A DNA stretch of 64,000 nucleotides from Eledone cirrhosa (taxonomy: Eukaryota). Both the position numbers and the translations under genes were made by a program. Under the pieces are notes generated by a model. The model saw only the letters and a program-made list of their open reading frames with translations, ran no database searches and was not told where the DNA came from. Shown one piece after another: positions 1 through 50,125 of the stretch; the stretch's first letter is position 1; each line of letters opens with the position of its first letter. The stretch covers positions 5,022,001 through 5,086,000 of the forward strand of contig OZ024760.1 in assembly GCA_964016885.1 (NCBI GenBank), in the 5' to 3' direction.

Positions 1-592
1 CTGTTGCATTACCATCTCCGTTTGTTTACATGTGTCGCTCGCTTCACCCTAATTTACATGTCCCAATAACTTTTCTTTAGTTATTGCTCGCACCAACCAG
101 AGGTATATGATCTTTAAAGCGAAGAAATACCAATGAAGGTTGGAAGATCACTGATGAAGGACTAATTTTATTCATATGTAACCCATGTGCAACCACGCAG
201 CACGCCATTTTTCATACATACATATATATATATATATATATATATATATATATATATGAGAAGAAATTAAAAGATGGTTAAAAAGATGGTTTTTATTATA
301 CGCATTTCAAAAACAAATATCGTCCCTGGATGATATTTGTTTTTGAAATGCGCATAATAAAATCATGGAACTTTTTTAGCCATCTTTTAATTTCTTCTTA
401 TATATATACTCCAGTCCAATAAACTGTTGAGTGCTACTTATCCGATATTTGCATTGCTTTATTGTGCTACAATAAAACTCACCTCCTACACTATATATAT
501 AAATGAAAGTATAAATGTGTGTGTGTGTTTGTGATGTGTGTATATTGGTGTGATACACACATGTATGTGTGCACATGGATATTGGTATAGAA

Positions 593-877
593 CAGAGGTT
601 CTCAAAGGTCAGGGGGTGTTGAGAAGGTCCAGGGGGGCGCTGGGACCTCAGGGGTTGGTAGAGATGATATAGTATATCAAATATCAAATGATACATATAT
701 AGTAAAATAAATAAAAATATATAATATTTGTTTATACATAGTATATATTATTATTTATTATATATTATTTGCAATTTGTGTGTAGGCAGGTCTCTCTGGA
801 AATAGGGTGGGATGGGGGCGCTGAGGTATTACATAGCCGTGAGGGGGGTGGCGGTGGCCCCAAAAATAGAACCTCTG
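593..877. mobile_element. hAT (Charlie-like) MITE
   Basis: TIRs CAGAGGTTCT/AGAACCTCTG; 8-bp flanks gtatagaa/gtgtagaa (7 of 8 match). Confidence 0.7.
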
Positions 878-2217
878 GTGTAGAATGTTACATTAGATAA
901 GGGACGTAACTCTGTCCGTTATTTTTCCACATGAATGTGACAAGATTATCCCTTCAGTTCATCGAGAATTAATAGATTTCTACGTGTTGTGAGATTACTG
1001 AAGACAACTGGAGACACAGAATACATATGGGGTAATGTTGTTAAATCTTTATTGCTTACTTTTTTTTTTATCCAGTTCAAATTTATTTATGGAAGTGGGA
1101 TAATTTTGATTGGAGGATAAAGCAATGAACTGGTACAAGTTATATATATATATATATATGCACGCATATGTAATTATATATATATATATATATATAGTAT
1201 ATACATTATATATATATGCACACACACATAATTATATATATATATATATTAGGTACATGTAATTACATATATATGTAATTATATATATTCATATATATAC
1301 ATGTAATTATATATATATATATATATATATATATATAGTAATAATAATAATAAATTTGAAGACTAAAATCCAAAGAGGGCTCGATAAGGATAAATATATA
1401 TCAAATATATTAGAACCGTAGAGCAAATATTTATTAAAATAACAGAGTAAAGTTTAAGCAAAGAATCGCTGCTTTCACCCTTAACGGGATCTTCATACAT
1501 ACACACCTCACTTTATATGGTATGATTCATAAGGCTTCCAGTGTGCTGAAAACAGCTTGGTATCTATACACCAGCGTTGTACCATTTTGGCTAGCTCACG
1601 TATACTGTGAAATAATAGGGATCATCCTGTTGTATAGCAAGCCTGGTGTTAGTGGCTGCACTGTATATATATATATATATATATATATATATATATATAT
1701 ATCAGTAGACATTTAATGTAGTGCTGAGTTCAAATCCATGTAGGAGGTTGTTGGGTGCATAGGGTCTATTAGTTGTAGATAGGGACCTTCCTCCCACAAA
1801 AACAAAAGGAAAAATATACAGGCTTATCAATATATATATATACATACACACACACTTCGATCATTACTTGGCTACTAATACAGGGGGCGGGGGGAACAAA
1901 AAAATATCAAAAGTTTCATTTCAAGCGAAACCCCTCATGTGAAATAGTCTGAAGAGATTTTCTGATTAGGGCACAGATTTTGTCCGGCTGCTAACCACAT
2001 GTATATATTTTAGCCACATCCATTGTTATAGTCCTTATGAATGGGGCTTACTGAAACATCACTTGTATTTTCTTACCCTACACATCATCATCATAAATGC
2101 TAATCCCTGTCTTCACCCTCACCCTCTCTGCAGCAGCCTACACTAACCAGTCAGCCAGCCAGTCAGCCAAGTAACACATCAGTCCACCTGTACACCATAT
2201 TAGTCCGTTGTGGATCT

Positions 2218-2397
2218 TCAGTTTTGGGACTCGGTCGTCCAACCTATGGATCTCTCGATCCACTCGCGCATGGATGATATCTTTGTGAAGATATTTGGTG
2301 AATTGGCTGCACAATTGTAGCGTCCCTTTGACAGTATTCCTACCATAGTCCATCGATTGTCAGGCTCCCAACACATCAACGCCCCTCCACTGTCACC
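2218..2397 (-). CDS. Last exon: protease C-terminus with catalytic Ser
   Basis: cag|GGT GAC AGT GGA GGG encodes [47 protein letters not shown]...QN then TGA; phase 0. Confidence 0.95.
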   Translation of the reverse strand, partial: GDSGGALMCWEPDNRWTMVGILSKGRYNCAANSPNIFTKISSMREWIERSIGWTTESQN

Positions 2398-47389: not shown

Positions 47390-48842
47390 CTTGGAGAGAG
47401 CAGAGCAGGGAAAAGCAAGTAGGTTTAGTGGTGGTTGTGGTTGAGGTGGTAGTGATGTGATCATGAAGGTTTCGATGTGTGTAAGATGTATATAGTTTTA
47501 CGAATGTGTTTCATATGCATGAATATATATATATATATATATGTGAAACTTACCGAGGAGATGGCGAAGGACCGTGACAAGTGGAGAGATGCTGTGCTGA
47601 ATAGGACCCATCCAACCCTTGCAAGCAGGGAAAAGCGGACGTAAAATGATAATATATATATATATGTATAGTGGTAGAACACTGGGAGGTTATATCCGTA
47701 GTAAGTAAGCACTCAGTCCATAGGATGAGTTCGGTATAAAATTAGTTCCATGACAGTTAGCAAACCATCTTCGAGGACATGTGTTTCACCTTGCTGATTT
47801 TCAACTTGAGTAGAAAATCTGCAAGGTAGAACACATGTCCTCAAAGATGGTTTGCTACCTGTTGTGGAACTAACTTTATATATAAATTTGAAGTGTAGTG
47901 TAAGGTATACTTTTTATCATAAACATACCATTTATTTATCATTACTAAGAAAAATTATTTGGAGTGGATGATGATATAAAAGATACATATAGGTGTATAT
48001 GTATAAATATATGACCCCTCTCTCTCACTATATCGGAGAATAAATTTAGATTAAATCTGCCAGCTAAGAACAACTCTTCTCCAATTGCTCTTTAACGACC
48101 TATACACAGATCTTCTCTTGATAATGAATGGTAAATCCGAAGATATTTGAGATCAATAAAATTGCTAAGGTAAAATTCTACTGTTCTCACTCTTTTCTCA
48201 GTCCTTTTATTCTCTATAACTCCTATTACCTTTGCACTTTTAATCTCGCATGCATTGTTGGGCTTCTTATTCCACAATGCTTCAAGCAAACTACAACACT
48301 TTGTTATATATATATATATGTATGTATATATATATATATATATATATATATATATATATATATATATATATATATATCTATATATATATAAATGAGAGAA
48401 AGAAAGATCAGAATTTTACCAAATCAGACTAGTAAGAACATTGTCCAGCAGAGTACTTGATATTTGGGGATAGTAGAGAGTAAATACAGTGGAGGGTTGG
48501 GGCCCCGGTGGCTGAGCTCTTGTCATTTGGCTCAATAGCTGAGCATTCTTGCCATTGGGCCCAAACTCTCTACTGTTTCATTCAAAAGCTATCATCAGGA
48601 AAGCTTTCCTGAATAAAACAGTTCTAATCCTGTAGAAGCCATTTCTATATTAAATTTGCTGTATACACTCTACTAATGTACTGAGTAGCTTTCTTACTGT
48701 GGTTACCCCCGATTGAACCCGGGACTCACACACACACACACATACACACATATATATAAAATGAGTTAAAGACTTCATTAATATGTAATTAACTGACTTT
48801 ATAACAGATACGAAGCATGAAACAATTTATACATCTCATATG

Positions 48843-48920
48843 TATTTTGTCTGAAGAAGGCATGCTCTGATTTATGTTAAACATAAATTTTTGCATCCCC
48901 GAAATATACATAATGAAATA
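48843..48920 (+). ncRNA. Hammerhead ribozyme motif
   Basis: tattttgt CTGAAGA aggcatgc...atttatgt-taa-acataaat...gcatcccc GAAA tataca TA atgaaata. Confidence 0.6.
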
Positions 48921-50125
48921 AATAGTGATATAAACTTATATCTTGCGTTTATTACTATTATTATTATATATATATATGATATATATATATGATAATCTCA
49001 GTTTGACAATCACCACCAACAAATGTGAGAAAGTTCTCCAGGAAAGTTAACCAGGAATCTTTAAAAATCTGCCCACCGAAGTAAACAAAGAACTTACTAG
49101 ATCTACCAACTCATAATATAAAATTAAATCGAATTGTTTAGAACTACAAGTGAAGTCATTCTTTTCCTTTTTTCATATATATATATATATATAAATATAT
49201 ATATATATATATATAAATATATATTGTTATATTTGGGGAGGGTCATATTTGCGTAATATTGCCAGAATTAATAACAGAACACACTCACTTTTTGACCACC
49301 GGTCAGTCAATGGCAACATTGAGGACCGAGTAAGTTAGATCGCAGATATGTATATATAAAAGACAGCGAGAAGCGAAAACCAACCAAACAGTGAGTGTGT
49401 TCTGTTATTAATTCTGGCAATATTACGCAAATATGACCCTCCCCAAATATAACAATATCTGTTTCGACACACGATTTCATATAAAAAACCTCGCAAAACT
49501 AATTCATCGCCGCTATATAAATATATATATATATATATATATATATATATATATATATATATATATATATATATATATATATATATATATATATATATAT
49601 ATATATATATGTATATAAATATATATATATATATATATATATAAATATATATATATATATAAATATATATATATATATAAATATATATATATATATATAT
49701 ATATATATATATATATATATATTTATTAAAATAACAGATTAAAGTTTAAGCAAAGAATCGAAGATCCCGTTAAGGGTGAAAGCAGCGATTCTTTGCTTAA
49801 ACTTTAATCTGTTATTTTAATAAATATTTGCTCTACGGTTCTTATATATTTGATATATATTTTCCTTATCGAGCCCTCTTTGGATTTTAGTCTTCAATTT
49901 TATTATTATTACTATATATATATATATAAATATATATATATATATATAAATATATATATATATATAAATATATACAGTATTTTCCGTAGTGTTGTAATAT
50001 AAATATTACACACAGTAGATGGACAGCTCACGTAGAGTTTGCTCGACAGTTCCAGTTGTAGTTCCAAAAGTAATCCGGAGAAAAATAGAAGGATTTAAAT
50101 GGATACAGTTTAGTTAAAAGGAATT

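Follow-up and report, generated by a model that had tools for sequence, protein, structure and literature searches.

Palindromes and hammerhead motifs in the window

The window, a 64,000-nt stretch of Eledone cirrhosa contig OZ024760.1 (positions 5,022,001 to 5,086,000), contains five inverted repeats, at 291-362, 17435-17543, 33153-33279, 38044-38146, and 49719-49827. All lie where a first-pass annotation of the DNA had placed them; their arms measure 31, 52, 51, 45, and 42 bp, in that order, and they make up five of the window's seven short-loop palindromes outside low-complexity sequence. Self-BLAST returned 17435-17543 at E = 1e-24 and 33153-33279 at E = 1e-31. Each site retains, as had been proposed, the 3' portion of a hammerhead motif of type I. 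The extents first given are too short, because both arms reach (TA)n and one arm has a tail of 60 to 100 nt; site 1, for example, truly spans 258-491. The relatives that had been listed also exist, for family A at 17136 (+) plus 15855 (-), for family C at 15463 and 54625 (both -), and for family D at 19149 (+). The features are as follows, with join positions numbered relative to the G of GAAA.

258..321, minus: site 1, family A, tailless inverted short arm that extends from the (TA)n flank up to helix II's 3' strand
309..344, plus: site 1, spacer between the two GAAA motifs, exactly the 36 nt of helix II; a stem join
322..491, plus: site 1, right arm with helix II loop, GAAA (345), helix III TGCGCA, UA, helix I 3' strand, and long tail
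17353..17488, minus: site 2, family B, tail-bearing inverted arm, 5' end at -15
17488..17543, plus: site 2, short arm, whose 5' end at -17 falls one base short of the predicted start (-18)
33075..33215, minus: site 3, family B, tail-bearing inverted arm reaching -18, with three mismatches in its last 18 nt (direct reading; the automatic alignment stopped at -10)
33216..33216, minus: site 3, the one additional base that separates the arms (G on the minus strand), a predicted copy of the cap
33217..33279, plus: site 3, short arm, reaching -18 and beginning exactly at the predicted +1 A (AGTTCGG)
38044..38101, minus: site 4, family C, inverted short arm, ending within the core (-16)
38102..38212, plus: site 4, right arm from -2, with tail; its 17-nt spacer class is the shortest in family C
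49719..49760, minus: site 5, family D, inverted short arm that stops in the loop of helix III (+8)
49760..49913, plus: site 5, right arm from -18 (7 nt inside the predicted start), with tail
17020..17330, plus: family A pLTR with tail and predicted +1 A at 17068; its hammerhead is intact (core 17136, GAAA 17179)
15763..16990, minus: family A, long inverted arm with 3' UTR, end of the ORF, and hammerhead core at 15855; approximate inner end
15395..15592, minus: family C copy with predicted +1 A at 15469 in TCAGCTT; its hammerhead is intact (core 15463)
54505..54855, minus: family C copy, intact hammerhead (core 54625), TATAAATA at 54661-54654, predicted +1 A at 54631
18994..19217, plus: family D copy whose core is CAGAAGA and whose predicted +1 A lies at 19143 in TTAGTTT
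48572..48724, plus: a sixth palindrome, family C, partly deleted and absent from the earlier list (direct reading)

The five axes had been placed on or beside helix II. A true helix II stem join is present at 291-362 alone; joins at the predicted start are absent at three of the five. The axis of the sixth palindrome, AGCT (48602-48605), falls at the predicted start of its family C subfamily, and the family A pLTR at 17020..17330 is the right arm of a long head-to-head pair. When sequencing contigs were aligned to the palindrome at 33085-33285, no piece spanned it, and 10 of the 15 joints listed there fall at 33217-33218 (one study, perhaps of the window's own sample). A control palindrome family that lacks a hammerhead (47735-47880) had no further copy in the sample.

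The palindromes are stubs of Penelope-like elements

The palindromes are head-to-head stubs of Penelope-like elements (PLEs), belonging to three Hydra-type families (A, C, and D) and one related family (B). Their PLE-derived, hammerhead-bearing nature was recognized from the start; the description of the families as unrelated does not stand. Homologous ORFs of 821, 758, and 712 amino acids, with YRDD and a degenerate GIY-YIG, adjoin the pLTRs of A, C, and D, and long family B copies lie downstream of ORF pieces of 44-53% identity, which were recovered only by tblastn. Atlas neighbors of the ORFs score 0.96-0.99, with HTH_animal, GIY-YIG, and RVT_1 on part of the neighbors' members. A Pfam search gave no hits for any of the four proteins, and a PDB search of the ORFs gave no match below E = 0.08. 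Hallmarks of EN+ PLEs are present, namely a hammerhead in the pLTR, an inverted 5'-truncated copy, and a one-sided tail. Judged by motifs, the A, C, and D translations resemble the Hydra clade as characterized in parts of PMC8557442: they have DKT, RW[T/R] in place of RWK, a CxCX5C linker, and CxxC and CxH near the C terminus, along with pLTR hammerheads and (TA)n targets. They differ from that clade in the U4A core of family D, as does family B in that no complete ORF was recovered for it.

The hammerhead core is canonical in families A and C. A CUGANGA core had been claimed throughout, but the ORF-linked family D copies listed have CAGAAGA (a U4A core), and family B has a U3-A8 variant. In the family B fold, 90% of cells are paired and three pairs are changed on both sides; among 500 shuffles, 7 to 24 reach three of five measures and about 300 reach the other two. 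Folding of the B, C, and D motifs does not exceed that of shuffles (z of 0.0 to 0.35), and helix II is longest in family A, at about 15 bp. No hammerhead family appeared among the Rfam matches listed (150 of 174), which were all miRNA-like, on TA repeats, and below gathering scores. At the predicted cleavage site of family B (+23) there is a weak excess of ends, 8 of 100 against 2, 2, and 2 at neighboring positions (among those listed, counted by eye); in family C, ends at the ribozyme cut site are inseparable from helix I microhomology.

Genome-wide, we counted 2,484 sites in family A (gap of 205-235) and 12,957 in family B. The stubs mostly lack the upstream promoter and are probably dead ends. 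A sixth family, F, has 67 anchors and lies outside the breakpoint map described below.

Breakpoints cluster at one adenine in each family

Breakpoints were mapped relative to the hammerhead motif in about 590 copies of families A to D from the first 52 Mb of one contig. Because copies were anchored on exact 3'-half motifs, the sample favors young ones. Both arms of a pair were counted as ends, the set still includes a few copies in tandem or in duplicate (three in L141; L212/L213), the windows around each cliff were picked after the histograms had been seen, and genome-wide counts were made by exact patterns. Within this scope the breakpoints are far from uniform, as had been suspected. In every family the 5' ends heap at one adenine in an initiator-like motif and fall off beyond it. 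This adenine is 112 nt upstream of GAAA in family A, immediately precedes helix I in C and D (at -25 in both), and sits within the loop of helix II in B. Ends lying between 3 nt inside and 1 nt outside the predicted +1 account for 26 of 95 in A, 107 of 227 in B, 58 of 142 in C, and 24 of 125 in D. In that interval the end rate per nucleotide is 0.073, 0.127, 0.133, and 0.051 for A to D; over the next 10 nt upstream it is 0.002, 0.047, 0.003, and 0.006. The drop is softer in family B, where 29 of the 62 remaining copies end within 10 nt and -17 equals -18 in frequency.

Other counts bear out the pattern. Genome-wide, family A inverted pairs number 111, 204, and 2,484 in three bins of 31 gap values each (20-50, 70-100, and 205-235), and among 50 gaps listed none exceeds 228, though up to 235 was allowed. 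In a fifth family, E, 9 of 28 ends fall between -147 and -161, where the TCATATG motif of family A recurs, and 1 of 28 falls in helix II. The family B motif T-y-A-G-T has its T, A, G, and T invariant in all 15 long copies, while the rest of the loop is variable. At an intact family B copy, loose contig ends pile up at +1 (41, 44, and 34 contigs in three runs of one sample), and their consensus ends in G. Promoter-like sequence in family C comprises a CCAAT box along with TATAAATA 30 nt upstream of the predicted +1, and a full-length element of this family (L178) starts 2-3 nt before the predicted start site. A TATA-like word at -31 in family B is absent from one subfamily, and families A and D have no clear TATA box.

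A nontemplated G precedes the predicted +1 in 33 of 60 ends located there, compared with 78 of 353 elsewhere (Fisher p = 5e-7). A genome-wide list of 100 family D sites has G at 58, C at 23, and A at 19 (counted by eye); after removal of sites already sampled, G stands at 52 of 93 (binomial p = 5e-9 against flank composition). The extra G is not evident in family E. We infer from the motif and the extra G, with the cliff as support, that the hot-spot adenine would be an RNA polymerase II start and the extra G a copy of the cap. The centers of the palindromes track the likely capped RNA start of each element, rather than a helix of the ribozyme. Comparison among families parts ribozyme from promoter, since the junction follows the predicted start whether this lies 70 nt upstream of the ribozyme, adjoins it, or falls inside it.

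Tails, spacers, and gaps of paired arms

Among 135 short pairs, the tail is on exactly one arm in 124, on neither in 10, and on both in 1, and the pairs have 131 distinct spacers. The inversions therefore formed independently, and the derivation from one amplified ancestral inversion, which the first-pass annotation had named as its alternative, fails. The distinct spacers and the asymmetric ends also do not fit the pattern of MITEs as a class, with homogeneous copies, one shared internal structure, and fixed termini. Among 50 family A gaps listed, 13 measure 224-228, which leaves both arms complete, and 13 measure 220, the length of a loop-less overlap at ATAT. In family D, several pairs have the extra G on both arms. 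The arms of a pair generally come from one subfamily, which limits the case for separate templates.

How the palindromes may form

Our preferred reading, to which we give a probability of about 0.75 on the sequence evidence, is that the palindromes are ordinary (TA)n insertions of endonuclease-bearing PLEs, made from two short cDNAs that run off a capped RNA 5' end and are joined head to head. Both DNA ends of one cut in (TA)n would likely each prime a short cDNA on the element RNA. The two cDNAs may begin at two internal start sites, one giving the tail end and the other the short end. Each would then probably run off the capped RNA 5' end, and the cDNA 3' ends would likely be joined head to head, perhaps by a template jump or by microhomology-mediated repair.

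The first-pass annotation instead had reverse transcriptase stall at the hammerhead fold and fold back at helix II. Helix stems do give recurrent minor joins, which is the part of that model that stands: 22 of 50 short-gap family A sites listed have a gap of exactly 36, the length of helix II, and in the 20 retrieved the loop occurs in either orientation and in at least six variants; 30 of 100 family C sites listed join via helix I. The fold is nevertheless not the main stop. Helix II joins in family A number about 49, some 2% of the start-site class of 2,484; at the 3' base of helix II, the expected point of a stall, ends occur at 0.004-0.019 per nucleotide, compared with 0.05-0.13 at the initiator-like adenine; and the strongest helix has the fewest ends, and B, C, and D fold like shuffles. 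Other inverted microhomologies also yield subpeaks (family A gap 83, 5 of 50 listed). In B, C, and D the axis does fall within the ribozyme or next to it, but this is because the predicted start adjoins or lies within it, and the hot spot shifts relative to the ribozyme between families. A stall leaves the extra G unexplained, and a single fold-back cannot yield the pairs in which both arms are complete. We therefore consider a helix II stall extremely unlikely as the general cause. Self-priming at the RNA 5' end, in which a single cDNA folds back and the endonuclease trims the second arm to leave a one-sided tail, is unlikely. Parts of PMC3846280 propose it from palindromes at PLE inverted junctions, and parts of PMC8557442 attribute the tail to endonuclease resolution; many of our junctions have short microhomologies and unequal arms, and subfamily variants are common to both arms. 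Fold-back, however, requires a loop and a shorter second arm, which is at odds with the family A pairs in which both arms are complete plus 0-4 nt, with those of loop-less overlap length, and with the family D pairs that have the extra G twice.

Two further explanations concern the hot spot itself and the spread of the junctions. In B, C, and D the hot-spot motifs double as splice-acceptor-like sequence (a pyrimidine tract plus YAG), and the end of the D. virilis Penelope intron maps to the 5' end of helix I according to portions of PMC4209133 and, for the intron, PMC2377424. A 3' splice site or other processing end is nonetheless very unlikely, since the ends contain the AG instead of beginning downstream of it, copies have no upstream exon in common beyond one G, family A has the same cliff and G at TC/ATATG, where there is no AG, and family C has TATA and CCAAT boxes at promoter spacing. 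Recurring junctions (gap 220 in A; GAGATTCC in C) could also suggest that every type of palindrome had a single origin and then spread as a MITE, or that long inverted repeats collapsed by deletion after insertion. We find this most improbable: beyond the spacer diversity, the tail changes side relative to the loop, the junctions are present in all subfamilies, and deletions would not halt at one base and add a G.

Relation to known elements and implications

L1 twin priming produces inversions from two primers at one target, with one RNA and a poly(A) start. Unlike in twin priming, the PLE arms described here both begin close to one and the same 3' end, and their sequences overlap. Full-length L1 insertions do share an extra G at the RNA 5' end, attributed to the cap in the passages on 5' junctions in PMC11702581. 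The closest published layout is that of EN+ PLE insertions, with a head-to-head inverted, 5'-truncated pLTR copy, a junction palindrome, a tail at one end, and (TA)n targets (parts of PMC3846280 and PMC8557442). The relevant passages of these papers invoke self-priming or resolution by the endonuclease, without locating the junction at a transcription start; here, the junction maps to one adenine per family, with an extra G, across the copies sampled. Most insertions here are also pLTR-only stubs, with tails longer than the 30-40 nt given in those passages. Minimal hammerheads of PLEs, as presented in sections of PMC4209133, likewise have a type I motif in pLTRs, a U3-A8 variant, and a short palindromic helix III like that of family A, and dual motifs on opposite strands, 100-700 bp apart, were noted there; those sections contain neither breakpoint mapping nor a predicted start inside the helix II loop, as in family B. 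Our literature search found no paper that places PLE inversion junctions at helix II or at a transcription start.

The Anolis Poseidon protein (PAc) offers an in vitro counterpart. It cuts and extends both strands on an uncleaved RNA template, with two internal reverse transcription starts that delimit the tail, and is predicted to form a dimer (PMC11167929). That study ends before second-strand synthesis and joining, the step that the genomic stubs would record, and exact, testable start sites and a two-cDNA model are now available for this system.

Parts of PMC8557442 and PMC11167929 state the formation of inverted ends and the role of the hammerhead as open questions. A broader proposal, whose chances we regard as evenly balanced, is that every PLE insertion consists of two cap-terminated cDNAs, which a reverse transcriptase dimer makes from two start sites and which become joined end to end, leaving in the stubs a fossil map of PLE transcription starts. 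In family B, with its predicted initiator inside the helix II loop, RNA from the element's own promoter would lack the catalytic core, and only read-through RNA from tandem copies would self-cleave, a built-in switch. If true, this would account for how a template can carry a hammerhead at its 5' end and not be destroyed by it. Tens of thousands of such stubs could be mistaken for MITEs or miRNA hairpins, so palindromes of this kind call for caution.

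Palindromes and the elements that carry them

An inverted-repeat scan of the window recovered seven short-loop palindromes that are not of low complexity, and five of these are the ones reported in the first-pass annotation. All five retain a hammerhead-like motif's 3' half, and the intact relatives described for their families are present as well. They belong to four hammerhead-bearing families, all Penelope-like elements (PLEs), namely A (site 291), B (17435 and 33153), C (38044) and D (49719). The palindromes are a real feature, and their layout is already known: inverted PLE terminal repeats (pLTRs), junction palindromes and one-sided tails are on record in PMC3846280, where they are put down to self-priming, and opposite-strand hammerhead pairs are noted in PMC4209133.

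Exact 3'-half motifs occur genome-wide 23,463 times for family A, 31,535 for C, 42,008 for D and, for one motif variant, 9,255 for B. We sampled 280 loci around listed motif matches on one contig (~1.96 Mb with overlaps). The open reading frames adjoining pLTRs (821 aa in A, 758 aa in C, 712 aa in D) contain YRDD, DKT, a CxCX5C linker, a degenerate GIY-YIG, CxxC and CxH, a set that matches the account of the Hydra PLE clade in section 11 of PMC8557442. Pfam and PDB searches with these frames returned no naming match, and their Atlas neighbours are consistent with PLE-like proteins. For family B, ORF pieces alone were observed in the sample. Among the ORF-linked family D copies listed, the core reads CAGAAGA (U4A) at 19149-19155 in the window and at sampled loci L224 and L196; judged by sequence, the ribozyme of this abundant family may be inactive.

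Breakpoints of element copies

Breakpoints were mapped by aligning each copy upstream from the GAAA of the hammerhead motif to long reference copies of its own family. There were 596 copies after exact de-duplication, 592 with 300 nt upstream and 589 after near-duplicate removal, in a sample skewed to young copies from one contig. Within each family, 5' ends climb to one position and then drop.

5' ends by family: peak position relative to the G of GAAA, then end rates per nt at the peak, in the 10 nt upstream of it and at the helix II 3' base (windows chosen post hoc)
Family A: -112/-113; 0.073, 0.002, 0.004
Family B: -17 to -19; 0.127, 0.047, 0.010
Family C: -23 to -26; 0.133, 0.003, 0.016
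Family D: -22 and -25; 0.051, 0.006, 0.019

The fall beyond the peak is softer in family B, where -17 is as frequent as -18. In a fifth hammerhead family, E, 9 of 28 ends fall at -147 to -161 and 1 of 28 falls in helix II. Family A gives the clean test, since its peak sits 70 nt upstream of the core. Its inverted pairs genome-wide number 111 at gaps of 20-50, 204 at 70-100 and 2,484 at 205-235. The earlier proposal of a preferred stall at helix II is not supported by 111 pairs versus 2,484, even though family A has the longest helix II of the families.

The peak base as a predicted RNA start

The peak falls on an adenine within a word that resembles the initiator consensus: TC-A-TATG in A and E, TY-A-GTY in B, CC-A-GATT or TC-A-GCTT in C, and TT-A-GTTT in D. 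In family B, its T, A, G and T are unchanged in 15 of 15 long copies, within a variable helix II loop. Family C carries CCAAT as well as TATAAATA, which lies 30 nt upstream of the peak, and one full-length element (locus L178) starts at the peak site; families A and D have no clear TATA box.

A non-element G precedes the peak adenine at 33 of 60 clean ends, versus 78 of 353 at other positions (p=5e-7); for ends that do not adjoin an inverted arm, the counts are 6/11 and 28/145. Genome-wide, the base before the family D adenine is G in 58, C in 23 and A in 19 of 100 listed matches, and G in 52 of the 93 listed matches left after removing already-sampled sites (p=5e-9). The extra G is not clearly present at family E ends. 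Independent contigs (one sample, contigs only) have loose ends that cluster at the peak base of an intact B copy, and the consensus of these ends finishes in G. An extra G is reported as a cap mark in full-length L1 insertions (PMC11702581), and PLE start sites are known within the pLTR (PMC2377424 and PMC8557442). We infer that the peak adenine is the predicted capped RNA start. The peak motifs of B, C and D could instead be splice acceptors, which they resemble, and in D. virilis the end of the intron maps to helix I (PMC4209133); however, the family A peak has no AG, and a shared exon is absent.

The predicted B start, TYAGTY, lies inside the helix II loop at L240:5496-5608, L262:5694-5806 and in 13 other long copies, and RNA from it would be without the U3-A8 core. 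Long B copies also have a conserved CATATA(A/T)GG word 61 nt further upstream.

Proposed formation of the palindromes

According to PMC11167929, a PLE protein cleaves both strands and extends them, starting at two internal sites bounding the tail (the extension on one arm), with uncleaved RNA as template. Reverse transcriptase would initiate in the 5' pLTR, a short way downstream of the ribozyme, and would get to the RNA start after ~50-260 nt, a distance that varies with the family and the start site; two cDNAs, one per start site, would run off the RNA start. The tail would be one-sided because the two cDNAs begin at different start sites. Among 50 listed family A pairs, 13 have both arms complete plus 0-4 extra nt, and another 13 have the length of a loop-less ATAT overlap. 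A single fold-back produces neither class; the same holds for site 33153, where both arms extend to -18 with a single base in between. We consider start-site run-off of two cDNAs likely (probability about 0.75).

A MITE origin was also weighed. Short pairs joined head to head number 135 in the sample (16 from A, 71 from B, 36 from C and 12 from D), with 131 distinct spacers and the tail on one arm in 124, no arm in 10 and both arms in 1. Family B has 12,957 exact-motif palindromes genome-wide, and junctions vary among the 50 listed. We rejected a MITE origin on the spacers, the one-sided tails and the varied B junctions.

The ribozyme-fold mechanism was mostly wrong, but helix stems do mediate joins: inverted microhomology matters in joins, and the stems provide it. 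The gap exactly equals helix II length in 22 of 50 listed short-gap family A sites, which scales to ~49 sites, and site 291 is of this class. Twenty such joins that we fetched have the loop in either orientation versus the tail and at least six loop variants, so the helix II join recurs independently. Among 100 listed family C sites, 30 have the helix I of the partner joined to the end at the start site. At the predicted ribozyme cut site, family B has a weak excess of ends (8/100 versus 2, 2 and 2), and family C ends are indistinguishable from helix I homology.

Searches of open-access papers found no PLE junction mapped to helix II or to a start site; the parts covered of 10.64898/2026.07.22.740005, PMC13282606, PMC8969392 and PMC6431247 hold nothing bearing on the junction. 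The window contributes the cross-family comparison and a predicted start inside a ribozyme loop.

Other repeats in the window

1356-1494, minus strand: family D copy standing alone (no inverted partner), tail present, end at -18
5436-5560, minus strand: sixth hammerhead family, F, core 5516, design related to A
17542-17683: 5'-truncated family E copy, core 17590, in direct fusion with the 17435 palindrome's short arm
27393-28110: 172-bp inverted arms, 225 nt apart, within an apparent DNA-transposase fragment
47665-47880: 146-bp palindrome, PLE stub-like, with a ~70-nt one-sided extension into TA repeats
49233-49446: 62-bp inverted arms, ~90 nt apart, different repeat family, TA repeats on flanks
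51062-54489: 228-bp direct repeats (98%) on either side of a pol-like frame of 751 aa (51623-53875) that contains YIDD
6682-7700, 20224-21817, 55710-64000: tandem arrays (units of ~120 bp and of 41/82 bp), plus inverted duplications that are young and 366-606 bp long

The palindrome at 47665-47880 has no canonical hammerhead core and no second copy in the sample. The apparent transposase fragment may be of the IS1595/ISXO2-like family, and the element at 51062-54489 looks like an LTR retrotransposon. Family F has 67 anchors in the sample, and several of its ends seem to lie near CTATCC.
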